Shown here: piece by piece, positions 1 through 17,446 of the stretch
How the letters are laid out: each line of letters starts with the position of its first letter
Numbering within the stretch: position 1 is the first letter of the stretch
Assembly: GCA_038257035.1 (NCBI GenBank)
Contig: JBBSJT010000034.1
Location: 1-20,762 of the forward strand
Direction: 5' to 3'
DNA: 20,762 nucleotides
From: Chlamydiia bacterium
GTDB taxonomy: Bacteria; Chlamydiota; Chlamydiia; Chlamydiales; Parachlamydiaceae
Notes under the pieces: model-generated
Database searches by the model: none
Told to the model about the DNA's origin: nothing
The model's input: the letters and a program-made list of their open reading frames with translations, nothing else
Made by a program: the position numbers and the translations under genes

Positions 1-1528
1 AATTAAAACGCTTGCCGACATCGTAGCGTTTACGCTCGGGCCAAAAGGCTGTAACGTCGGTTTGGAAAAATCCTATGGCGCACCTATCATCACTAATGAT
101 GGTAACAGCATTGTTAAAGACATCACCTTAAAAAATACTTTTGAAAACATGGGTGTTTCCATGGCAAAAGAAGTCGTGCAACAGATCAAAGAAAAATGTG
201 GCGATGGCACAACGACAGCAACTCTTCTTTTAAATGCTATGGTAGAACATGGAATTAAATACATCGCTGCAGGTGCAAGCCCTATCAGCCTAAAACGTGG
301 AATGGATAAAGCTGTTGAAGCGGTTATTAAGGAAATTGAAAAAATTGCCATTCCTGTTAAAGATTCAAAGGAAATTTGCAATATCGCAACGGTATCTGCG
401 TCCGGAAATAAAGAAATTGGTAAAATCATTTCTGATGCCATTGAAAAAGTTGGAAAACTTGGCGTTATTACCATTGAAGAAGCAAAAGGAACAGAAACAA
501 CAATTGAGCTTGTTGAAGGCATGCAATTTGATCGCGGCTATTTAAGCAGCTATTTTTGCACAAACCAAGAGCGCTTGACTGTTGAAATGCATAATCCTCA
601 AATTTTGATTATTGATGGTAAAGTTTCTAACATTCACGAACTTCTTCCTGTTTTACAAACTGTTGCAACAACAGGTAAAGAATTATTGATTATCGCAGAA
701 GACATTGAAGGCGATGCCTTATCTACTCTTGTAATCAATAAACTGCGCGGTTCACTAAAAGTTGCAGCGGTTAAAGCCCCAGCCTTTGGAGATAGACGAA
801 AGGCCATGTTGCAAGATATTGCTGTTTTGACAGGCGCAACACTTATTTCTGAAGAAACAGGTATTACTTTAAAAGACACTCCTGCCGATGCTTTAGGATC
901 TGCTGAAAAAGTGACTATCACTAAAGAAAACACGATTATTGTTAATGGAAAAGGCTCTGATACTGAAATTAAAGCAAGAATCAAGCAAATTGAAAACGAA
1001 GTGGAAAGTGTAACAAGCCCATATGAAAAAGAAAAACTAGTTGAGCGCAAAGCAAAATTAAGCGGTGGTGTTGCCGTTATTTATGTCGGAGCATCCACAG
1101 AGCCTGAACTTAAGCAGAAAAAACAAATGTTTGAAGATAGCTTAAATTCAACCAAAGCTGCCCTAGAAGATGGTATTGTACCCGGCGGTGGTGTGGCTCT
1201 TATTAAGGCAGGCAATGTGATTTCTTCGTTAAATCTTGAAGGAGATGAGCTACTTGGAGCTAAAATCGTACAGTTAGCTTGCGATACCCCTTTGAAGCAG
1301 ATTGCTCATAATGCAGGTTTTGATGGTTTTGTTATTTTACATGAAGTGCGTGCCGGAAAAGCTAATGATGGTTTCAACGCTCTTACTGAAAAGGTTGAAA
1401 ATCTGCTTGATGCTGGTGTTGTCGACCCTGCTAAAGTTGTAAAATATGCGTTAACCTATGCATCCTCTGTTGCAGGTATCGTTTTAATCTCTGAGGCATT
1501 AATTGCCGACGCAGAAGACAACGACTAA
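1..1528 (+). CDS. groEL: Chaperonin GroEL (Cpn60) paralogue, 5'-truncated by the window edge
   Basis: The frame is open from base 2 (IKTLADIVAFTLGPKGCNVGLEK...), so the TTG at 62 is not the real start. Motifs: TLGPKG, ITNDG, GDGTTT, EGMQFDRGYLS, AVKAPAFGDRRK, GIVPGGG, GVVDPAKV. Ends in ADAEDND with no GGM tail. Confidence 0.97.
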   Translation, partial: IKTLADIVAFTLGPKGCNVGLEKSYGAPIITNDGNSIVKDITLKNTFENMGVSMAKEVVQQIKEKCGDGTTTATLLLNAMVEHGIKYIAAGASPISLKRGMDKAVEAVIKEIEKIAIPVKDSKEICNIATVSASGNKEIGKIISDAIEKVGKLGVITIEEAKGTETTIELVEGMQFDRGYLSSYFCTNQERLTVEMHNPQILIIDGKVSNIHELLPVLQTVATTGKELLIIAEDIEGDALSTLVINKLRGSLKVAAVKAPAFGDRRKAMLQDIAVLTGATLISEETGITLKDTPADALGSAEKVTITKENTIIVNGKGSDTEIKARIKQIENEVESVTSPYEKEKLVERKAKLSGGVAVIYVGASTEPELKQKKQMFEDSLNSTKAALEDGIVPGGGVALIKAGNVISSLNLEGDELLGAKIVQLACDTPLKQIAHNAGFDGFVILHEVRAGKANDGFNALTEKVENLLDAGVVDPAKVVKYALTYASSVAGIVLISEALIADAEDND

Positions 1529-1533
1529 TCCAA

Positions 1534-1644
1534 TGTAGCGTAGGTTTTAACCTGCGCATGTTTTTGCAGGTTTCAACCTGCAAGCCTTTAAACGCAACGG
1601 GTTAAAACCCGTTGAAACATGCGCAGGTTAAAACCTACGCTACA
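1534..1644. repeat. GTAG-type REP doublet (REPIN-like cruciform) between convergent genes
   Basis: Perfect 30-bp inverted arms TGTAGCGTAGGTTTTAACCTGCGCATGTTT (1534-1563 / 1615-1644). Each arm is GTAG plus its own palindrome. Two related palindromes lie inside (1564-1583, 1595-1614). Confidence 0.85.
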
Positions 1645-1647
1645 AAC

Positions 1648-2445
1648 TTAATAATCTAGATCTGCTTTTGCCAAGTTGGCGAGCCTATAGATGGCCTCGG
1701 TGTGCCCTTGAGTTGCAGCTTTTGTGAAATATTCAAAAGCTTTTTCTGTCCATTGTTCATCCTCCACATAATGCTCTTCATAAAAAATGCCGACCATGTA
1801 TTGAGCATCCGCATTTCCTTGATCTGCACTAAGTTTAAAATACTTAAAAGACAAAACTCCATCAGGATCCTCTTCGACACCATCATTATAACATTGTGCA
1901 ACCTGATATTGGGCTTCCATATGGCCCTGGTCTGCACTCAATTTGTAATACATAAAAGCTTCTTTATCCTCCACATCACTGGCATAGCCATAGTAATAGG
2001 ATTCAGCAAGATAATATTGAGCTTCTTTATTTGCATAAGGTGAAGAAAGATACTGAGTAATAGGCTCTAAGATTTCCTGCATCTGAAATTTGACCATTCT
2101 TTCATGAATGCTGTTCCATTTTTTGCATCTAGTTAATATATCTTTCATTTGATTGGAATAGGAACAATAGAGTTCTCTCCAAACTAAAGAATCCATTTTA
2201 TCTTTGTAATCGCTTTCATAGGCTTTAAATTCTGTACATACACGATTTTTCCAATAACTTTGTTGATCTTTATAAACATCTTGGCTGTTTGAATCGCAGA
2301 TCATATCGTGAAAGAATAAGTTTGTAGCACCGAGCATGGCTGTTGTTTTTGCTCCATCTGCATAACCAAATGCGATGAGCTTCCATGCTTCATAAACGCA
2401 ACCATGATCCAAATTATAACTGTTTAATTCATTAGCTCGTTTCAC
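1648..2445 (-). CDS. Sel1-like repeat protein with F-box-like N-terminal domain (putative secreted effector)
   Basis: About 3 Sel1 repeats (AQYYLA..YYYG...EAFMYYKLSADQGHMEAQY...KLSADQGNADAQY...KAATQGH.EA). GTG start lies 7 nt after AAGGA. The first ~93 aa are homologous to 9699..10178. Confidence 0.85.
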   Translation of the reverse strand: MKRANELNSYNLDHGCVYEAWKLIAFGYADGAKTTAMLGATNLFFHDMICDSNSQDVYKDQQSYWKNRVCTEFKAYESDYKDKMDSLVWRELYCSYSNQMKDILTRCKKWNSIHERMVKFQMQEILEPITQYLSSPYANKEAQYYLAESYYYGYASDVEDKEAFMYYKLSADQGHMEAQYQVAQCYNDGVEEDPDGVLSFKYFKLSADQGNADAQYMVGIFYEEHYVEDEQWTEKAFEYFTKAATQGHTEAIYRLANLAKADLDY

Positions 2446-2470
2446 TTTTCATTCCTTTATGTTGTTAAAT

Positions 2471-2509
2471 AAAAAAAAGGCATTAACTAAATTTTAGTTA
2501 ATGCCTTTT
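2471..2509 (-). terminator. Intrinsic terminator of the 1065-aa gene
   Basis: Hairpin AAAAGGCATTAACTAA / TTAGTTAATGCCTTTT with an 8-nt U tract on the minus strand, about 20 nt past the stop at 2531. Confidence 0.8.
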
Positions 2510-2530
2510 GCTTGTTTTAATGCTTTTAAA

Positions 2531-5500
2531 TTAAGCCTTAATCATAATCTTACCATGGTCAAGTTCTACCTTTCTATTGAATGAGCTTGCTGCACCATCG
2601 ACCGCTGAATAAAGTGCACTAAAAAATAGGTACTTATTCACTCTTGTTGCATCGACTCGATTCACAAAAAGATCTACTGCATCTTTATAGCCGGTTTTAT
2701 CAATAATCATCTTAGTGATTACACTAAGATCAGCGTTAAGATTAGCGTTAATCAAGTCATCGACTAATACTTTGACTACGCTTGAAAGATCGTTTGATTG
2801 ATCTTTTAGGTTTAAGAGCTCATTTAACTTCCCAGCACTTAATTTTCTTAAAGCTTCCGGACTGTCAATCAGCCTTATCACTAAACCTAATTGCTGCTTA
2901 ATTTGATCTTTGAAAAAAGTACTTTGTCCTGTTACTTTTAACAATCCTTTCAAATCACTCGGCACCCCTTCAGGGAACAAGATATGATCCTGAATAAGTG
3001 TTGCAATGCTATCAAGGTATTTAGCCTCACCAGCCGCTACTTTTTCCCTTGCAGCTTTTAAGCTTTGTAAGGAAACAATAGTTGCCTGTTCACGTGCAAT
3101 TTCGTTATTCAGAAGACCTATCTTAAGAAGATCAGCCCCAATAATCTTAGCTTGCAAAATCTTGATGTTGGCTTGTCTTGCCAATATCGCAGATTCCGGC
3201 GTTTGAGAAGCTTTTAGCTTCGTAATAGCGTCAGATTCTTCATTTTGCAGTTTCTCAAGTTCCAATCTTATATCTCTTGTCCAATTGGCGTCATGAGTTT
3301 TATTGATATGTTGCACTAAATCATCCTGAGGATTGTAAGATGCATTTATGTCTTTAAATTCTTGATAAAGCTCATCCTCTGTTAGAAATCCTAAATCTGC
3401 CATTGTCTTTAAATCGCGCATTTTAGACTTATAATTGTCAGATTCTTTTTCTAAGCGTGCTTTATCTTCTTCTATCTTCTTAGCTAAAGACTCGGCTCTT
3501 AGCTTATATTTTTCCTCAACCCGTGTAATCAAATCTACAGTTAATGCTTTTCTATCGGCAATAGCTTTTTGAATGATCGGGGTGCTGCTTTCAATAAGCG
3601 AAGTGCCTTCTAAAAGTAAGCTAGCCTCAAGATCCGTTAATACCGGAACTGCCTGACTCAACAAATCGCCTTTCCAGCCTTTGTCGCTAGCTCTTAGTTT
3701 TTCTAGTGCCTTATTTTGGATAGCAACGTTATAATCATTTGAAGATTCATTTGCAGTTTTTGGAGTACCATGGTAAACCTGATTTATAATATTCAAGTTA
3801 TCTGTCAAATCCTTGACAACTTCTTTTTGAACATTATCCAAGATAACTTTAACTCTTTGTCTGTTTTCCTTGCCAAAAACATATTCCCTTAATCCTTTAA
3901 GCGAATTGTTAATAAGACCTGAACTTACAACATGGCTCGCTTTGTTAATAACTGACGGGAAAATGCCGGCAATTGTTCTAACAATAGGAATATTATAGAG
4001 GGCAAAATCTACAAAATCACGGACAGTATCATCGCTATTTTCCGCATCTTCCTCAAGCTCAAATTTAGCATTAAGTACATTGTAGATATTTTTTAATTCC
4101 TCATTATCAGCAGCATTTTTCTGACCTACTTGATTGAGCGCTTCTAATTTGTCAATAATAGCAGGATCTTGCGCTATTCTAACTACCTCAGCTACTGATG
4201 CTGCAAATAAGCTATTTTGCTTTGCTTTTAATCCTAACGCTTCAACCTTGGCATTTTTTTCCAATTCATGAGCTTCTTTTCTGTATTGTCTAGTAAATGG
4301 GTCGCTAAACTTGTAAAAAGCATCTTCATAAGCCACTTCAAAATCTCGAATAGTCATCACAGACTTTGTATCATTCAAATAATTTCTTATAAGGCTTGAT
4401 GAATCTTTAAACTCCTTGATCATATTAAATTGTTGATCACTTCCCAAAATCCGTTTCATTTCAACGTTTAATTCTTTAAATGAATCACTTGTTGCAACTT
4501 CGCGAATTTTACTGTTTAAATCAAGGATTGCTCTTTCTAAATCAGCCATTTCCTTAACATGATTTTCAGTTTGATTCAATGTTACCAAGAGAGAATTGTG
4601 CCTGATACGCTTGCATTCTCTTAAGGAGTACAAGTCATAAGCTTTTTTAAGAATGGCTTGTCGTTCTTTATTTTTTGTCTTTAAAGCTCTCTTGTCAGAT
4701 TCAAGCTTCACTTCAATAGCGCTTTTTGGCTTGCATAATCCAAAAAAGACCCCAATCTTATGAAATATTTTTGAGACAAATTTAACGATGCCACTTATGA
4801 ATTTCATAAAGCCTGATTGGCTTTTATTAACTAGTTTAACTTTTGATAAGGGTGAAGCCTGGATAGCCTTTTCGCCTTTTTCGATTGCATCAATTGCCTT
4901 ATTCTTTTGCGCATCTACCACCATTTGAATATCAACCGGCCCTAAGCCTAAAACGCTAGGAATACCACCTAAATTTGGAAAACCAATCCTTGCAACTGAA
5001 TCTTGGAAATTTGCAAGAACAGGGTCTACCACTGTAGCATTTCTTTTCGCATTTCTTATATCTAAGGCAACTTTTCTTTCCTCTAAAGCCTTCATTGGAT
5101 GAATTTCTTTTGGCATTGCAATTCCTGAAATCGGATCAAACACGTAATTTGTTACAATTTTAGGTTCCTGTTGAACCTCTACCCCAATTTCATTATGATC
5201 AATATCGATCTTTTTAATTTCTGCATTTAATTTTTTACCGGCTTCTGAAATTTTATCTTGGACAAAACCTTTGATATCGGTGATAACATCCATGAAACCA
5301 ACAGTTTGTTGATCACTTACATTAAAAACAGCATCCTCCGGATGATCATCTACCGGTACATCAGCTAATTTCAGCCTTGCATTGTCAACAACATTAGAAA
5401 ATTGTTTATTAATAAAACCTTTAACATCATCTAACTGAATGTCGTTTTTATCAAATTCTGAAGAAACAGCATCCTCCGGATGATCATTTACCGGTATATC

Positions 5501-5728
5501 GCTTAATTGCTGTCTTGCTGTTTTAGCAATGTTTGAAATTTGTTCCTTGATAAAATCTATTTCAGGATTTTTTTCAGGCTCTTGAACAAACAAATCATCA
5601 ACACTTTGAACAAAATTGTCGTCTAATTCTATGATTGTTTCATTCATTTCTTGGAGTTCTTTATCTGAGATTTCAGATTCATCTGGTGAATTTCCTGAAA
5701 AATAGCTAAAAACGTTATATATATTCAT
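2531..5728 (-). CDS. Large hypothetical helical/coiled-coil protein with N-terminal 46-aa repeats
   Basis: 1065-aa ORF with AGGGAG RBS, an upstream extended -10 and a downstream terminator. Repeats DIPVNDHPEDAV / DVPVDDHPEDAV. K/E-rich coiled-coil segments. No catalytic motif recognised. Confidence 0.85.
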   Translation of the reverse strand: MNIYNVFSYFSGNSPDESEISDKELQEMNETIIELDDNFVQSVDDLFVQEPEKNPEIDFIKEQISNIAKTARQQLSDIPVNDHPEDAVSSEFDKNDIQLDDVKGFINKQFSNVVDNARLKLADVPVDDHPEDAVFNVSDQQTVGFMDVITDIKGFVQDKISEAGKKLNAEIKKIDIDHNEIGVEVQQEPKIVTNYVFDPISGIAMPKEIHPMKALEERKVALDIRNAKRNATVVDPVLANFQDSVARIGFPNLGGIPSVLGLGPVDIQMVVDAQKNKAIDAIEKGEKAIQASPLSKVKLVNKSQSGFMKFISGIVKFVSKIFHKIGVFFGLCKPKSAIEVKLESDKRALKTKNKERQAILKKAYDLYSLRECKRIRHNSLLVTLNQTENHVKEMADLERAILDLNSKIREVATSDSFKELNVEMKRILGSDQQFNMIKEFKDSSSLIRNYLNDTKSVMTIRDFEVAYEDAFYKFSDPFTRQYRKEAHELEKNAKVEALGLKAKQNSLFAASVAEVVRIAQDPAIIDKLEALNQVGQKNAADNEELKNIYNVLNAKFELEEDAENSDDTVRDFVDFALYNIPIVRTIAGIFPSVINKASHVVSSGLINNSLKGLREYVFGKENRQRVKVILDNVQKEVVKDLTDNLNIINQVYHGTPKTANESSNDYNVAIQNKALEKLRASDKGWKGDLLSQAVPVLTDLEASLLLEGTSLIESSTPIIQKAIADRKALTVDLITRVEEKYKLRAESLAKKIEEDKARLEKESDNYKSKMRDLKTMADLGFLTEDELYQEFKDINASYNPQDDLVQHINKTHDANWTRDIRLELEKLQNEESDAITKLKASQTPESAILARQANIKILQAKIIGADLLKIGLLNNEIAREQATIVSLQSLKAAREKVAAGEAKYLDSIATLIQDHILFPEGVPSDLKGLLKVTGQSTFFKDQIKQQLGLVIRLIDSPEALRKLSAGKLNELLNLKDQSNDLSSVVKVLVDDLINANLNADLSVITKMIIDKTGYKDAVDLFVNRVDATRVNKYLFFSALYSAVDGAASSFNRKVELDHGKIMIKA

Positions 5729-5771
5729 CTCAATCTCCTAATTAGGGATTACTTTTATTATTTAAAGTTTA

Positions 5772-5780
5772 ATTATAACA
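5772..5780 (-). promoter_or_regulatory. Putative extended -10 promoter (TGTTATAAT) for the 1065-aa gene
   Basis: Minus strand reads TG-T-TATAAT about 44 nt upstream of the ATG. The -35 is weak (TCGCAA). Confidence 0.5.
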
Positions 5781-5876
5781 GATGAATTGTTATATTGCGA
5801 TAAATTTGATGTAAAGATCTCGTTAAGATAAACATTTTTTGAACTTTTTAGTAAATTATAAATTGATGTTTGTGAA

Positions 5877-6014
5877 TTTTAAAAGCGAAGGACTAAGAAA
5901 GAGCCGAAGTTTTTTAATTTTGCTTAGAAGTAATCGACTTTTAAGCATCACAAAGAAATATTTAAGAAGTTTGCGCTAATCTTCGCAAACTCCGCGATCT
6001 TCGCGTTAAAAAAA
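5877..6014. repeat. Degenerate T-tract/AAC-GAG-type palindromic element
   Basis: The right end reads TTTTTTTAACGCGAAGATCGCGGAG on the minus strand. The decayed left end reads TTTTAAAAGCGAAGGAC. Same pattern as 10222-10310. Confidence 0.45.
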
Positions 6015-6053
6015 TGAATACTCTACGATATTTAAAGGCCTGCTGTAAACTAG

Positions 6054-6082
6054 TTGACAAAGATAAAAAATTTTATTACTTT
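6054..6082 (+). promoter_or_regulatory. Sigma70/sigma66-type promoter TTGACA-17-TACTTT
   Basis: Perfect -35 at 6054-6059, 17-nt spacer, TAnnnT -10 at 6077-6082, directly upstream of the small ORF. Confidence 0.7.
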
Positions 6083-6105
6083 GCTAGTTTTTAACGGGGT
6101 TATCC

Positions 6106-6234
6106 ATGAACATACTAGGTGCAGGCCTTTTTGTAGAAGCGGCAGTTGTTGGGATTGTTTGCGCAGTCTTTCTGATTCTTTTTGTTGTTGCAGGGATCAG
6201 GCAAATTCTTAAAGGTGATAACGACCAATATTAG
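6106..6234 (+). CDS. 42-aa single-pass membrane microprotein (not in ORF track)
   Basis: MNILGAGLFVEAAVVGIVCAVFLILFVVAGIRQILKGDNDQY*. GGGGT RBS lies 5 nt before the ATG, with a consensus promoter upstream and a hairpin downstream. Confidence 0.7.
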   Translation: MNILGAGLFVEAAVVGIVCAVFLILFVVAGIRQILKGDNDQY

Positions 6235-6244
6235 TGTTATCAAC

Positions 6245-6322
6245 CTAGTACATCATGTCGATTAAATTGATAGGTAATAACTTTAAATTTTGCGTATCAA
6301 TTTAGATGTCATGGTGTACTAG
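6245..6322. terminator. Long imperfect hairpin between the convergent microprotein and pgm genes
   Basis: CTAGTACATCATG pairs with CATGGTGTACTAG and TAAATTGATA pairs with TATCAATTTA. There is no clear U tract. Confidence 0.5.
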
Positions 6323-6323
6323 T

Positions 6324-8081
6324 CTATCTTAGCTCTTTTTCAAAAGATGCTAAAAGTAAATTAATCTTTTCTTTAGCCTGAGTCAACGCAACTTCCACAT
6401 TGTCAAATTTTTTATTGACTACACCAACATAAATTTTAATTTTCGGCTCTGTACCCGATGGTCGCACAATAAGCTTGCTACCATCTTCAAGCCAAAAAAT
6501 CAGGACATCCGATTTTGGTAGTGTTAAAACGTGCTCTTTACCGGTTTTCATGTCTATTGAAATAGATTTTGCATAATTTTCAAGCAAAATCACTGCACTG
6601 TCATTAATTGATTTGGGAGGGTTTCTCTCGAGCTTCTCCATCCCCTTTTGCATCTTTTCCTTGCCATCTTTCGTCTCTTCAAATTTAACTGAAAGTAGAC
6701 CTTCGACAAAAAGTCCGTGAGTTTTGTAAATGTCATTTAATTTATCAATAAGGGTTTTGCCTTCAAGCTTTAAAGACAATGCCATCTCTGCAATCATTAA
6801 AGAAGTTGAAATGGCATCTTTATCCCTTACAAGTGTGCCATAAAGGTAACCGTAAGACTCTTCTGCTCCAAATATATATTTTGGACCCTCCTCGAGCGTT
6901 TCCCATTCTCTAATTTTTTCTGCGATGTATTTAAAGCCTGTCAACACATCGACACACTCTTTTTGGCTTGATTTAACGATTTCTTTAAAAAGTTCTGTTG
7001 TGACAATTGTCTTAATAAAGGCAGCATTTTTTGGCATTTGACCATTGGCATTTAACCCTTTGATAATGTGATCAAGAAGCATACAGGCAATTTGATTACC
7101 ATTTAATATCATAACATCTTTGCCATGTTTAACAGCGACTCCAACACGATCGGCATCAGGATCTGTGGCAATCAAAATGTCGCCATTTATTTTTTCTAAA
7201 AGATCGATTCCAAGTTGCAAGGCAGCCTTTTCCTCGGGATTTGGCGATTTCAGAGTATGAAAATTTCCATCAGGAATACATTGTTTTTCAACATAAGCTA
7301 CATTTGTAAAGCCGCAATCCTCAAAAGCTTTAGGAATTAAGGTAATTCCAGTGCCATGCAAGCTTGTGTAAACGATGCTGAGTTGATTTCCCTTTTCAAG
7401 GTTTTGTTTTTGATAAAGTGGCAATTTTATAATTTCGCTTAAATAAATCGCATCCACTTGATTTAAAACATGTTCGATATGAGGATCGTTTAAGGAAGCA
7501 GAAGATTTAATTTGGTGTAAAGATGTGATGAGGTTTACTTCTTCAATGATACCTTCATCATGAGGGGGCAAAACTTGAGCACCATCATTCCAATAGACTT
7601 TATACCCATTATATTCTTTTGGGTTGTGTGAAGCTGTGATCATGATAGCTGCTTGGCAACCTTTTAATCGGCACCCAAAGGATACGTAAGGTGTTGGTCT
7701 GATTTCCTCGGTAATATAGACGTGCAAGTCGTTTCCTGCTAATACTTTTGCGGCCTCTTCTGCAAAGAGTTTAGAATGATGTCGTGAATCATAACTAATA
7801 AAAACAGAAGGCGTTTCTGAAGTTTTTGGCTGCTTTTTGATGTAATTGGCAATGCCCTGAGTTGCAGCTTTTACCGTGTATTGATTCATGCGATTGGTTC
7901 CAACACCCATCAACCCCCGGAGCCCGCCCGTTCCAAAGCTTAAGTTGGTATAGAAAGCATCGACTAACTCTTTTTCATTATCGACAAGTAATTTTTTGAT
8001 TGTTGATTTTGTATCTTCATCGTAAGGCCCGTTCAACCATGTGTCAATGCGCTTTTGAATTTGCTGATCAATCATTTTCAC
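6324..8081 (-). CDS. pgm: Phosphoglucomutase/phosphomannomutase (alpha-D-phosphohexomutase)
   Basis: FGTGGLRG, catalytic ITASHNP, metal loop DPDADR, GAEESYG, RPSGTEPKIK. The start overlaps the Mrp stop (GTGA); an alternative ATG is at 8075. Confidence 0.95.
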   Translation of the reverse strand: MKMIDQQIQKRIDTWLNGPYDEDTKSTIKKLLVDNEKELVDAFYTNLSFGTGGLRGLMGVGTNRMNQYTVKAATQGIANYIKKQPKTSETPSVFISYDSRHHSKLFAEEAAKVLAGNDLHVYITEEIRPTPYVSFGCRLKGCQAAIMITASHNPKEYNGYKVYWNDGAQVLPPHDEGIIEEVNLITSLHQIKSSASLNDPHIEHVLNQVDAIYLSEIIKLPLYQKQNLEKGNQLSIVYTSLHGTGITLIPKAFEDCGFTNVAYVEKQCIPDGNFHTLKSPNPEEKAALQLGIDLLEKINGDILIATDPDADRVGVAVKHGKDVMILNGNQIACMLLDHIIKGLNANGQMPKNAAFIKTIVTTELFKEIVKSSQKECVDVLTGFKYIAEKIREWETLEEGPKYIFGAEESYGYLYGTLVRDKDAISTSLMIAEMALSLKLEGKTLIDKLNDIYKTHGLFVEGLLSVKFEETKDGKEKMQKGMEKLERNPPKSINDSAVILLENYAKSISIDMKTGKEHVLTLPKSDVLIFWLEDGSKLIVRPSGTEPKIKIYVGVVNKKFDNVEVALTQAKEKINLLLASFEKELR

Positions 8082-8833
8082 TCCATAATCTTTTTCATTT
8101 GTTTTGCGATTTCATTAAAATAAAGTCCTGTTTGTGAGGCGCCCTGATGGAAAGCTGCAGGATACCCTTCATCGCCTCCTATTCTGATGGCAGCATCAAG
8201 CGGGATGCTTCCAAGTAGTGGAACATTAAAATTCCTGCTTAATTCTTCAACTTTACCTTTCCCGAAAATATCATAGACATCGTTTGTTCCCGGAACGGTA
8301 AAGCCTGCCATATTTTCTATCATTCCAAGAAGTGGGATATCTAACAAATGAAGAGAATTAATAGCTTTGATAGCATCTAAGATGGCAACTTCCTGTGGTG
8401 TCGAAACAATAAAAGCGCCATCGATTTTTAGAAGTTTTGAAAGAGAAATAGGAACGTCTCCTGTGCCAGGAGGCAAATCAATGATTAAAACATCCAAATC
8501 GCCCCAGCTGATTTCTTCAATCATTTTTTTCAAAATATTATGCAACATCGGTCCTCTAAAGGACAAACTTGTGGCTTCCTCGATAAAAAAACCGATCGAC
8601 ATCGATTGAATGCCAAACTTAGAAAAAGGAAGAGTCTTTGATTCTCCATTTTCTTTGACAACACGAGGAGTTAGACGTCTAAGCCCAAGCATCACAGGAA
8701 TAGATGGCCCATAAACATCTGCATCAAGTAGGCCTACAGAAAAGCCCAATTTAGCAAGGGCAATGCTTATGTTGACTGAAACAGTCGATTTACCAACGCC
8801 TCCCTTTCCTGAGCCTATAACATAAATTTTCAT
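8078..8833 (-). CDS. mrp: Mrp/NBP35 (ApbC) family P-loop ATPase
   Basis: Deviant Walker A GKGGVGKS, DADVYGPS, SIGF, RGPM, DLPPGTGD, VSTPQ, ENM. The start overlaps the upstream stop (ATGA). Confidence 0.93.
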   Translation of the reverse strand: MKIYVIGSGKGGVGKSTVSVNISIALAKLGFSVGLLDADVYGPSIPVMLGLRRLTPRVVKENGESKTLPFSKFGIQSMSIGFFIEEATSLSFRGPMLHNILKKMIEEISWGDLDVLIIDLPPGTGDVPISLSKLLKIDGAFIVSTPQEVAILDAIKAINSLHLLDIPLLGMIENMAGFTVPGTNDVYDIFGKGKVEELSRNFNVPLLGSIPLDAAIRIGGDEGYPAAFHQGASQTGLYFNEIAKQMKKIME

Positions 8834-9279
8834 GTATTTATCTGAATATTGAGTTGGGTTTGAATTGTGCTAAGAGGCACAACGCTTGCATCTTTTCGAA
8901 TTCCTTCACAGTAGTTTGCAGCCTCAACCCAATCCTGTTCGCTCTTTAAATTTTGCGGCCACCATGGAAATGTTCTGCACTGTTTTGGTCTAACTTGATA
9001 AATAGAACATTTACGCTCTTTAAGAAACACACAATCATATGTTTTACTCATTTCCACCAATGCCAACTTGCCATTGATGCGTCGAAGATAGCGCATTGAG
9101 AATTGATTAACTTCCAAGTTTAAATGAGCTGCCATTGTTTCAATTTCCTCATCTGAAACCCATACGTAGCCTGGAGCCCCGGTACAGCATTGCCCGCATT
9201 CTGTGCAGCTGAAAGCCAACCCGTTTTTATACCATGGGCTATCATCTACTTCATTGACCATCTGTAATTTATCACTCAT
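8830..9279 (-). CDS. YkgJ-family (CxxCxxCC) cysteine-cluster protein
   Basis: CTECGQCC...CVFL...CSIY..RP.QCRTFPWW...C.G. The ATG at 9279 follows GAAGG by 5 nt and is preferred over the TTG at 9291. Confidence 0.9.
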   Translation of the reverse strand: MSDKLQMVNEVDDSPWYKNGLAFSCTECGQCCTGAPGYVWVSDEEIETMAAHLNLEVNQFSMRYLRRINGKLALVEMSKTYDCVFLKERKCSIYQVRPKQCRTFPWWPQNLKSEQDWVEAANYCEGIRKDASVVPLSTIQTQLNIQINT

Positions 9280-9299
9280 AAAAACCTTCAAAATAGTAA

Positions 9300-9328
9300 A
9301 GTTTATCCGTTAGTTTGGGGATTGTCAA
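9300..9328 (-). promoter_or_regulatory. Promoter TTGACA-17-TAAACT for the YkgJ-family/mrp/pgm operon
   Basis: Minus strand -35 at 9328-9323, 17-nt spacer, -10 at 9305-9300. The three genes have overlapping stop/start codons. Confidence 0.75.
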
Positions 9329-9431
9329 GTTTATTATATACCACGTTTTTTTTAACACCGAGACCACCGAGGAGCGAGGAGAGAAGAAAAGGAAGAAAGA
9401 AGAAATGCTTTGATTTCACTAGATGGTATAA

Positions 9432-9619
9432 TTTGCTAAATTTGGAGTACTGTGCCTTAAGGCTCTGCTTTGTTGCTCAAATCGGCTTGGGCGTTGCATA
9501 CCCGATTTATCGGCTTGAAGTATTTTTTAACAACTTGAATCGACAAGGTCGATTCAGCAGCCCGCCAGGTCGGGCTGAAAACAAAGCTTTGACAGGTCAC
9601 AGCACTCCAAATTAGCAAA
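9432..9619. repeat. GGAG-type REP doublet (REPIN-like) with internal hairpins
   Basis: Arms TTTGGAGTACTGTGCCTTAAGGCTCTGCTTT (9441-9471) and AAAGCTTTGACAGGTCACAGCACTCCAAA (9583-9611). Inner hairpins at 9502-9513, 9536-9556 and 9558-9577, with a recurring GACA(A)GGTC-like core. Confidence 0.7.
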
Positions 9620-9657
9620 ATTACAATTGCTATGAAAGCTTAGCTCAAAGCATACAA

Positions 9658-9697
9658 GTTGACACCCATGTCTAAACGCTTTCCTCCTTCGCAGCTA
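9658..9697 (+). repeat. Decayed direct-repeat copy of the 10393-10433 sequence
   Basis: GTTGACACCCATGTCTAAACGCTTTC-CTCCTTCGCAGCTA vs GTTGACACCCGTGACTACATGCTTTCGCTGCTCCGCAGCTA, 34/41 aligned positions identical. Confidence 0.75.
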
Positions 9698-9698
9698 G

Positions 9699-10178
9699 CT
9701 ACAACTGAAACATATAATTCATGCCCGATAATTGATTATTTATGTCTGCTGCTTGTTCATTTATTTCTGCTAATTGTGCATTTATGTCTTCAAATTGTTC
9801 ATTCATGTCTGCAAATTGTTGCTTCATTTCATTAGAATTGGCCGATATTCTCTCTGTTATATCTAACATCTTTGCCAAAGTATTCTTGTGATTAGTCATG
9901 GTTGAACCATACAGTTCTTTCCAATCAGAAGTAGAAGTATCTCCTTCGTAATCTCCAAATTCTTGAATCGCATGATTTTTCCAAAACAGTTGTTGCTGAT
10001 CACGGGTTTCTTTTTGATTGGATTGGCAGATCAACTCATAAAAAAATGAACTGGTAGCACCTAACATTGCAGCGGATTCAGGTTCCATTTCCCCTGATTG
10101 GAAAATTACTAGTTTCCACGCTTCAATAAGTAAACAAAGGTCAAAATTAACGTTGTGGAAGTCATTTGGTCTTTTCAT
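9699..10178 (-). CDS. F-box-like protein with C-terminal heptad-repeat coiled coil (paralogue of 1648..2445)
   Basis: AAGGA RBS. Shares EAWKL..F, AMLGAT..FF...IC.SN, WKN....EF and W[KR]ELY with the Sel1 protein. The C-terminus is built of 7-aa repeats. Confidence 0.8.
   Translation of the reverse strand: MKRPNDFHNVNFDLCLLIEAWKLVIFQSGEMEPESAAMLGATSSFFYELICQSNQKETRDQQQLFWKNHAIQEFGDYEGDTSTSDWKELYGSTMTNHKNTLAKMLDITERISANSNEMKQQFADMNEQFEDINAQLAEINEQAADINNQLSGMNYMFQL
9719..9823. repeat. Five imperfect 21-bp tandem repeats (coding)
   Basis: TCATGCCCGATAATTGATTAT, TTATGTCTGCTGCTTGTTCAT, TTATTTCTGCTAATTGTGCAT, TTATGTCTTCAAATTGTTCAT, TCATGTCTGCAAATTGTTGCT. Confidence 0.8.
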
Positions 10179-10221
10179 ATTATCCTTAGATAAGTGCGTA
10201 GGACGAGTAAATTAATAACAT

Positions 10222-10310
10222 TGTGATTTTTTTAACGCAGAGACGCAGAGAGGAACAAAAAAAATTCGTTCCTCTCTGCGTCTCCGCGTCTCTGCGTTAA
10301 AAAAATCACA
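10222..10310. repeat. Palindromic element TTTTTTTAACGCAGAGACGCAGAG...CTCTGCGTTAAAAAAA
   Basis: Near-perfect inverted arms built of 8-mer CGCAGAGA units. The right arm has one extra 8-mer. Confidence 0.85.
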
Positions 10311-10346
10311 CAGGTCAATTAAAAAAATGTTTATAAACACAAAATC

Positions 10347-10433
10347 TGTCGCTGCTATCGCAGCTTAATTTTTATTTTAATTAATACCACGGGTTGACAC
10401 CCGTGACTACATGCTTTCGCTGCTCCGCAGCTA
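10347..10433. repeat. Multi-hairpin REP-like element (CACGGGTTGACACCCGTG core)
   Basis: TCGCTGCTATCGCAGCT and TCGCTGCTCCGCAGCT short hairpins in direct orientation flank the palindrome CACGGG-TTGACA-CCCGTG. Confidence 0.7.
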
Positions 10434-10550
10434 AAAACAATATTCTTAAATACTACAAGATCAAATCCTTAAAGCAAAATTAACCTCTCTCATTTCTCTC
10501 ATGCAGCTTCTCTGTGATCTCTGTGTTAAAAAAAAGGTCTGTAGTGAAAC

Positions 10551-11099
10551 CTACCAGCTATCGTTGATGTAGTCGCTGATTTTTTTGGCGAGGTTGAAAT
10601 ATAAAGGCTTTTTAGAAGCATCCAAGGCCTCATCGTAGTCTGTCAGTTGACCAAGTGAGTTGGAATTGATCTGATCCCTTGTTGAGTAATAATCATGATC
10701 AAAATCAGTGCTTGCAGACACTTCAACAGGACTTAACACTTCATACCCCGTGCAGGCATCGATCAGGGAAAAAACTGCCGTAACGGTTGATCGAGTTTCA
10801 ACAGGGATTGTTTCTCTTGTAAGTTCATTTTTTTTATTTCTATAGTAGCGATACCCGATATTTTCTACATCAAAATCAACCAACTCTATTTTTAATACAA
10901 GGTCTGCACCAACTCTTCTGTACTGAAAAATGGATCCTGTCGAAATGTGATGGATCATTTCGTTTGTAAAACTGCCATCAAAATCACCTGAGGCATAAGG
11001 CACCGAGAGTGTGTTGTAACGTGAAGAAAACTGCGAACTACCAAACTGGTAGCCACAGCCACTAAGACAAACAAGTAGAAATGCTAAAACAAATTTCAT
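10551..11099 (-). CDS. lptE: LptE-like LPS assembly lipoprotein
   Basis: Lipobox LSGC followed by GYQF, LptE-like size and layout, translationally coupled to the bamD-like gene as in chlamydial gene order. Confidence 0.7.
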   Translation of the reverse strand: MKFVLAFLLVCLSGCGYQFGSSQFSSRYNTLSVPYASGDFDGSFTNEMIHHISTGSIFQYRRVGADLVLKIELVDFDVENIGYRYYRNKKNELTRETIPVETRSTVTAVFSLIDACTGYEVLSPVEVSASTDFDHDYYSTRDQINSNSLGQLTDYDEALDASKKPLYFNLAKKISDYINDSW

Positions 11100-17342: not shown

Positions 17343-17446
17343 TTTTTACCAGTGAGGCAGTGAGAAAGACATGAGGAAAGTGAGGGTCTCTGAATTCCTT
17401 ACCTCTCACTGAGCTCATGTCTTTCTCACTGCCTCACTGGTAAAAA
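17343..17446. repeat. Palindromic element with perfect 33-bp arms
   Basis: TTTTTACCAGTGAGGCAGTGAGAAAGACATGAG (17343-17375) is inverted at 17414-17446. It has 8-mer CAGTGAGR units and the same layout as 10222-10310. Confidence 0.85.

Follow-up and report, generated by a model that had tools for sequence, protein, structure and literature searches.

This study concerns a unit of about 1.19 kb in the genome of a Chlamydiia bacterium of the Parachlamydiaceae, lying between an lptE-family gene and a gene for a CxxCxxCC (YkgJ-family) protein on contig C34 (JBBSJT010000034.1; assembly GCA_038257035.1, 2.37 Mb in 210 contigs, 95.8% complete). The window, by which we mean the whole stretch of DNA analysed, is this contig at its full length of 20,762 nt. 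A first-pass annotation had described outer 30-bp inverted repeats enclosing a doublet of repetitive sequences, two direct repeats (DR1 and DR2), a hairpin and the gene for a 159-aa protein, and every component is present where it had been placed. The outer repeats (9346-9375 and 10506-10535) match at 26 of 30 positions, similarity dropping to 36 of 60 on extension beyond this core, and the arms of the GGAG doublet (9429-9454 and 9598-9623) are 81% complementary. The unit nearly fills the space available, with 1190 of the 1259 bp between the start of the ykgJ-family gene and the stop codon of lptE. Its parts are as follows, A1, A2, B and C being dispersed repeat families of this genome.

9346..9400, plus strand: left A1 arm, consisting of the core (9346-9375) and a purine-rich tail; follows no stop codon and lies immediately outside the ykgJ promoter
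9429..9623, no strand: family C palindromic doublet (the GGAG doublet)
9658..9697, minus strand: DR1, a degenerate, shortened family B arm that starts directly past the stop codon of the enclosed gene
9699..10178, minus strand: the 159-aa gene, a lineage-specific N-terminal domain plus coiled coil
10222..10310, no strand: intact A2 hairpin, its 30-nt arms 97% complementary
10345..10434, minus strand: full family B arm of 90 bp, including DR2 (10393-10433) as its outer part
10480..10535, minus strand: right A1 arm, with its core at 10506-10535, 15 bp past the lptE stop codon in the customary A1 position
10551..11099, minus strand: flanking lptE-family gene
8830..9328, minus strand: flanking gene of the YkgJ family (CxxCxxCC); 9328-9300 matches a sigma-70-like promoter
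1648..2445, minus strand: closest paralogue of the enclosed gene, 38% identical over 107 aa and with Sel1 repeats; no A1 enclosure

All of the unit except the gene and short linkers is covered by dispersed-repeat matches when the unit is searched against the genome with BLASTN, and the whole is a non-autonomous inverted-repeat element with nested content. The right arm lies just past the lptE stop codon and the left arm just outside the ykgJ promoter match, which is the usual anatomy of one whole element. The idea of a structured RNA was rejected, an Rfam scan of the unit giving sub-threshold hairpin matches alone (best 47 bits against 80). No RNA data set containing the stretch is listed among sequencing runs.

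The enclosed gene

The 159-aa protein consists of the N-terminal domain of a family with 15 members in this genome, joined to a coiled coil that is coded by 21-bp tandem repeats. All three longer family members scanned carry Sel1 repeats, and the family is partly arranged in tandem arrays, with four neighbouring members on contig C8 and four on C3. The closest paralogue is found at the far end of the rearranged ykgJ-mrp-pgm block. No second nucleotide copy of the gene was found in the genome by BLASTN. Its close homologues are unnamed proteins alone, 79 and 64% identical, with seven matches among 1.84 billion representatives; none was found in 72 other genomes of the bacterial family, nor were loci for the homologues found in metagenome or genome collections.

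The gene had been called F-box-like. There is no Pfam match at E ≤ 0.1, and what stands of this description is a weak profile similarity. One family member is F-box-like at E 0.024, below the curated cut-off, and hhalign against the F-box gives a weak match on the second helix (P 0.021, probability 2.3%) that nevertheless scores above 11 of 11 controls. F-box clusters occupy ranks 4 and 5 among the best five in the ESM Atlas, with scores of 0.92 and 0.89. A Foldseek search with the structural model (predicted local distance difference test score, pLDDT, 72.7) gave no match at E ≤ 0.001, VIA-align returned long-helix matches only (Z ≤ 6.7) in a comparison by which residues 1-54 were barely tested, and a sequence search of the PDB produced coiled-coil noise only. 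The F-box label is therefore best treated as a weak lead. An effector role may be supposed from the architecture of the family, by analogy with the chlamydial families set out in the portion of PMC4209131 consulted.

Repeat families and the enzymes that accompany them

A profile search of the genome recovered about 900 repeat arms in 14 families, with no match to any family in the reversed genome. The outer arms belong to family A1, with 107 arms once 7 cross-hits to a sister family had been removed. Adjacent A1 arms no more than 1.3 kb apart face inward in 19 of 19 cases, whereas those further apart are of mixed orientation (3 inward, 8 outward and 13 in the same direction). The inverted doublet is the usual A1 unit, though 69 of the 107 arms are lone, and the sizes of the pairs form a continuous range from 98 to 1209 bp. 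The low rate of pairing (38 of 107 arms) and the low consensus identity (0.81, compared with 0.88-0.92 for families A2, A3, A5 and A6) are as expected of an old family.

A1 arms keep close company with the ends of genes. A stop codon lies within 30 bp of an arm in 17 of the 19 pairs, and 56 of the 69 lone arms follow a stop codon at no more than 30 bp, with the T-tract leading, which suggests either targeted insertion or selection acting on the stop-proximal arm. The remaining 13 lone arms, which follow no stop codon, are of a rarer type to which the left arm of the window also belongs.

The inner repeats have other affiliations. The inner hairpin, previously assigned to the same family as the outer ends, in fact represents the sister family A2, whose unit is one base shorter. 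Family C has 48 arms and matches both ends of a Y1 transposase gene on C68 (82% over 62 bp and 83% over 41 bp), while the family B arm at 10345-10434 shares 78-81% identity, over 90-93 bp, with each end of another Y1 transposase gene, on C119, which has an internal stop. Thus, families B and C are each the same repeat on both sides of a Y1 HUH transposase gene, as in TIRtron-type elements. Since DR1 and DR2 match the ends of a Y1 gene, the "direct repeats" of the first-pass annotation, although their identity over 41 nt is indeed 83%, represent a single repeat arm present twice. We rejected their interpretation as long terminal repeats or a target duplication, family B arms having 23 other loci; DR2 is closer to other family B copies (86%) than to DR1 (83%). 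More generally, the inner repeats occur at 23-54 other loci each and have better matches elsewhere than to one another.

Among the enzymes to be looked for beside the outer ends, the first-pass annotation had named RAYT/IS200-like HUH transposases. Seven Y1 loci were inspected in this assembly (95.8% complete) and none has A1 arms on both sides; six of the seven have inverted ends of their own. The two Y1 proteins tested score as TnpA of the IS200 type, with 29 and 24 bits against the NCBIfam RAYT models, for which the cut-off is 80.

A different enzyme is found between arms of this kind. The genome encodes two proteins of the GxxExxY family (PF13366 only on C7 and C17; TIGR04256 for the one scanned), and the gene on C7 sits between A3-type arms that match at 41 of 42 positions. 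An inverted repeat is present between the flanks of 20 of 26 GxxExxY loci in relatives, and by eye 6 of these are A1-type and 2 A2-type (L117 and L103). Of 401 genomes from the order, 130 contain the A1 arm motif itself. At least 594 arms were surveyed in 22 genomes, from which 12 inward pairs of at least 367 bp were chosen by eye and joined by 3 others; two wider pairs (5 and 6.7 kb) were left out of the survey, and genomes G005 and G010 were covered in part. Five of the resulting 15 long A1 pairs enclose a GxxExxY gene, seven hold other repeats alone, one holds an insertion sequence (IS)-type element with an integrase domain and two span several genes over 3-4 kb, one of the latter having a hidden nearer partner arm. 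A single passenger gene was found in none of the 15.

In the window, inward arms of the kind found around GxxExxY genes are present, and the nuclease gene is absent from between them. Judged by sequence, the unit appears to be a gene-less derivative of an A1-type GxxExxY cassette that has acquired other content, and the partner enzyme of its outer arms would most likely be a GxxExxY nuclease rather than a RAYT. As to other candidates, DUF559 genes were not found in the genome, and a four-helix-bundle gene (PF05635, C166) was discarded, there being no repeat match in its flanks. That gene (L096) stands by rimM-like and methyltransferase-like sequence and may be a contaminant from another phylum. 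A literature search found neither a published description of a GxxExxY gene-plus-arm element nor a published biochemical activity of GxxExxY proteins on such arms, and we know of no such activity.

Several further observations concern these families. Genome G035 has 67 matches to GxxExxY, of which many are C-terminal fragments sharing identical scores, a pattern that suggests recent spread of a shortened cassette. In G005 and G010 the arm word occurs, among the matches listed, chiefly as dimers facing outward at a spacing of about 30 bp, opposite to the arrangement in this genome. The window holds more dispersed hairpins at 1534-1644 (family D), 5950-6014 (an A3-like lone arm), 6245-6322 (family I, with no enzyme gene assigned to it) and 17343-17446 (A5). 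An A2 pair of 457 bp on another contig (C37:14400-14861) holds about 300 bp unlike all 14 families and resembling a gene fragment. Elsewhere in the window, at 2531-5728, a 1065-aa open reading frame (ORF) lacks any Pfam match and contains a direct repeat of 112 nt (5309-5420 and 5447-5558).

How the unit may have been assembled

The first-pass annotation had offered two interpretations: that the unit is mobilised in trans together with its gene, or that it is a hairpin whose loop became a landing pad for successive insertions. The second is supported for A1 as a family. Members of another family lie inside 12 of the 19 A1 pairs; among the pairs formed by the remaining families, such content is found in 4 of 304, and no A1 element of this genome sits within another family. 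Among the 14 families, inward pairs of more than 600 bp with content other than their own enzyme gene are confined to A1. The same is seen elsewhere: repeats lie inside seven more A1 loops of other genomes, and in G365 (L174, C1:2125411-2127739) the loop holds an integrase-domain IS together with a further transposase-like remnant.

The explanation that we favour, with confidence a little better than even, is that a gene-less GxxExxY-type hairpin inserted behind lptE and that its loop took up younger repeats and a gene stepwise. The initial hairpin, of family A1 and about 100-190 bp long, would have inserted behind the lptE stop codon, probably through a GxxExxY enzyme acting in trans. Its arms would have fenced most of the intergenic space between the stop codon and the next promoter, and by virtue of this fencing the loop would have made a harmless landing place. 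The Y1-transposase-linked repeats of families B and C and the A2 hairpin would have inserted into the loop, and recombination or break repair at these repeats would have brought in the gene, possibly when lptE and ykgJ became joined by the rearrangement. In a variant of this last step, a circle crossing over at the family B arm would have left two B arms in the same direction, namely DR1 and DR2. We infer these steps from the family identity of the parts, the one-way nesting, the stop-proximal arm and the occurrence of further A1 pairs that hold genes.

Three more such pairs in this genome hold a gene or gene fragment. A pair of 1.2 kb on C4 (23466-24675; L126:4467-5676) has a window-like layout and encloses a true F-box gene (PF00646, E 1e-7) along with a family D palindrome and an A4 hairpin; its left arm codes the last codons of the upstream gene, and at this site in relatives the left neighbour gene is different. 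A 967-bp "skip" here, considered as an excision joint, was not used: one side is 23 bases, and it fits another copy of a nested repeat. The unit on C47 (about 8120-9240; L193), with a degenerate left arm and a family C doublet, holds a HAD-domain gene of the Swiss Army Knife RNA-repair type between 13-bp direct repeats of the family C end; its flanking genes are separated by about 200 bp in G001 and, in G020, by about 1.4 kb that lacks the HAD gene, three of five loci being uninformative. On C60 (4186-4816; L127) an A1 pair holds a hairpin and a broken fragment of a helix-turn-helix antitoxin-like (HigA-like) gene with no toxin, the fragment sharing 78% identity with the gene paired with a HigB gene in G010. 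It lies between holA and a methylase gene, which overlap or are 5-9 bp apart in four of five relatives and 213 bp apart in one. The C47 unit was taken from a list of degenerate partners for lone arms within 3 kb and accepted by eye; as a whole that list is not clearly enriched in inverted-inward partners (18, compared with 13, 11 and 6 in controls, at score 30). A candidate unit on C21 was dropped, no partner arm being visible. In another genus, on contig C7 of G014 (L143:1586-2919), A1 arms flank a 371-aa gene at distances of only about 65-70 bp, no further repeat intervening, the unit sitting between a thioredoxin-like gene and uvrD. The 371-aa protein is putatively Inc-like on account of a hydrophobic stretch, with no family match over cut-off. 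Both flanking genes are present at 10 of 24 other loci, 21-60 bp apart in 6, 181-314 bp apart in 3 and 916 bp apart in 1.

These units could also be read as cargo cassettes, in which a GxxExxY enzyme acting in trans cuts out arms and passenger together and inserts them as one piece behind stop codons, the nuclease gene having been replaced by the passenger. The same arm type brackets GxxExxY genes; the units on C60, C47 and G014:C7 lie at junctions where relatives lack the gene; those on C34, C4 and C47 are alike in layout and 1.1-1.2 kb in size; and the C4 arms are near-best matches of each other (ranks 5 and 6 of 106). On the other side, the four A1 units of this genome hold four different passengers, none of them repeated, single passengers are missing from the 15 long pairs of other genomes, we know of no GxxExxY activity on such arms and found none published, and relatives, at 60-70% protein identity, stand too far off for a one-step insertion to be visible. 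Target duplication is also wanting: the longest flanking repeat at the window unit is 3 bp, and across the 19 pairs the mean is 4.1, compared with 3.9 for shuffled flanks (p 0.21). We therefore think it unlikely that the window unit arose in this way, and the broader proposition, that in environmental chlamydiae GxxExxY-type arms are a gene-capture vehicle, inserted whole past the stop codons of housekeeping genes by the nuclease in trans, with lineage-specific, effector-like passengers (F-box, Inc-like, HAD, antitoxin) in place of the nuclease gene, seems doubtful to the same degree. At the window locus itself, with its single-copy gene and lack of target duplication, mobilisation of unit and gene together finds no support.

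The site of the unit has a history of its own. Of 40 relatives, 32 yielded both lptE and ykgJ, and in none of the 32 are the two genes adjacent; where they share a contig they lie 72-390 kb apart. The unit's site is therefore a rearrangement junction. It also follows that the comparison proposed earlier, a search for an empty site at the lptE-to-ykgJ interval, could yield none in these relatives, the genes not being neighbours. A different gene, X, follows lptE at 20 of 29 loci in relatives, groEL directly precedes ykgJ in both congeners, and a DEAD helicase faces pgm or mrp in four other genera. In this genome, hairpin repeats are present at each of the lptE-ykgJ, pgm...groEL and helicase-X junctions (window 2-9291; C79:7905-8358).

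It might be supposed, then, that the arm behind lptE and the arm before ykgJ came from separate A1 elements and were united with the gene by the rearrangement. This would suit the absence of the lptE-ykgJ junction from all 32 relatives and the usual presence of X behind lptE, the finding of hairpin repeats at three junctions unseen in the relatives examined, the unremarkable likeness of the window arms and the location of the closest paralogue at the opposite end of the rearranged block. However, the repeats at the remaining two junctions are of families A3 and D instead of reciprocal A1 halves; gene-less true pairs often have unremarkable partner ranks too (1 to 106); and the C60, C47 and G014:C7 units, where gene order is conserved, would be left unexplained. 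We consider such a hybrid origin rather unlikely.

Chance offers a further explanation, namely that the inward orientation of two lone A1 arms around a gene is accidental. The first-pass annotation had held that an abundance of solo half-elements would undermine the pairing; lone arms are indeed abundant (69 of 107). With 73 lone arms placed at random and their stop-codon preference kept, 0.14-0.50 inward enclosures by lone arms were expected and two were observed (C4 and C34), giving P(≥2) of 0.008-0.09 and P(≥1) of 0.13-0.39. Because the window case was chosen for showing the pattern, this statistic is modest evidence. Outward or same-direction enclosures of genes up to 1 kb were expected 0.4-1.05 times and not observed, C60 and C47 are further inward cases outside the thresholds of the test, and the left arm of the window is of the rarer type that is not behind a stop codon. 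Chance thus appears quite improbable, and a mis-joining of the contig at a repeat far more so. The only sequencing run containing the stretch, X1, is a soil metagenome that may be the source sample. Its contigs join ykgJ, left arm and doublet (8842-9517) and DR2, right arm and lptE (10314-10765), each with zero differences; two short stretches, 9517-9837 and 10303-10314, are unbridged among the X1 pieces listed, as a mis-join would allow. Mis-joining is nevertheless made unlikely by the divergence of the inner repeat copies, which are 14-18% off their nearest full-length relatives. The X1 contigs listed contain no excision joints over the window unit.

Some observations sit uneasily with stepwise filling of an old hairpin. 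Consensus identity in families E, G and A4 (0.79-0.80) is as low as in A1, so that age is not cleanly measured by it. The two A1 arms of the window rank 28 and 37 of 106 as mutual matches and are not especially alike, a middling similarity that would also result from a hybrid of two elements. No GxxExxY gene lying between A1 arms was found in this assembly, and no gene-less A1 hairpin was observed as an intermediate at lptE-ykgJ. Gene-flanking direct repeats, which integration of a circle would be expected to leave, are seen here and on C47 (13 bp) alone, not on C4 or C60. Finally, G014:C7 is the cleanest cassette-like case and resembles a whole cassette no less than a filled loop. Stepwise filling remains our preferred account all the same, and the unit is likely to be a passive nest rather than a parcel now moving.

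The significance of the locus is to some extent independent of this choice. It leads to a widespread arm-bracketed GxxExxY element, for which we found no published description, whose loops accept whole lineage-specific genes besides repeats and IS, and even passive nests mark gene entry points and breakpoints in the conserved chlamydial gene order. Were the units to move whole, they would offer a testable substrate to a family of nucleases not yet characterised and provide effectors with a means of spreading; were the arms a gene-capture vehicle, this would be a cargo element driven by a PD-(D/E)XK enzyme without target duplication, and a new route for turnover of the effector repertoire in intracellular bacteria. 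A general role in spreading effectors, as first envisaged, is not borne out: an arm is near 15 of 41 F-box genes (of 54 Pfam matches, those mapping to an ORF not at a contig end), compared with 590 of 1656 others, and arms are on both sides of 1 of the 41. Such units are rare and do not explain the F-box expansion.

Comparison with known systems

One likeness is to the REPINs and REPtrons associated with RAYT, as described in the portions of PMC3116915 and PMC3333891 consulted. There, as here, inverted doublets are dispersed between genes, an enzyme gene is bracketed by the repeats and lone arms are remnants of doublets; the window unit also shows no target duplication. HUH enzymes of this kind cut and rejoin single-stranded repeats, and the models of cleavage, strand transfer and single-strand circles for TnpA-REP provide a route for the exchange of DNA between repeats (PMC3333891, in the part consulted). 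Unlike the REPIN/RAYT system, the outer arms go with a PD-(D/E)XK GxxExxY gene, not with an HUH enzyme, and they lack the GTAG tag. Passenger genes inside a doublet are not described in those parts of the two REPIN papers.

Families B and C fit the TIRtrons, in which, according to the part of PMC3733652 consulted, tyrosine transposase genes (TIRYT) have long inverted repeats unlike the GTAG REPs and gene-less copies are dispersed. The IS200-type scores of the two Y1 proteins, below the RAYT cut-off, suit the TIRYT class too. This likeness covers the inner layers only; none of the seven Y1 loci lies between A1 arms.

Passengers between non-autonomous ends, without a transposase, are a feature shared with the integron mobilisation unit (IMU) and with mobilisation of an integron by NFM2 miniature transposable elements bearing inverted repeats (MITEs) (PMC3184786), and with the TIMEs, miniature inverted-repeat elements derived from Tn3 (PMC4133298), as far as the consulted parts of these papers go. 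The ends in those cases are two whole MITE copies or Tn3-type 38-bp ends, with a DDE transposase and duplications of 5-6 bp, and movement of TIMEs has been demonstrated (PMC4133298, same part). The window unit has one arm per side and no duplication. A further likeness is to the genes of the GxxExxY family (TIGR04256/PF13366) that are bracketed by A1-, A2- and A3-type arms, from which the unit differs in having the arms without the nuclease gene.

The family of the enclosed gene, for its part, resembles the F-box and BTB expansions of the Parachlamydiaceae (PMC4209131) in combining a lineage-specific N-terminal module with a repeat domain, partly in tandem arrays. In the portion of that work consulted, the expansion is attributed to duplication and chlamydial genomes are said not to be littered with mobile elements. 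In contrast, the 159-aa protein has no Pfam F-box match, and the genome in which it is found carries its roughly 900 repeat arms, in 14 families.

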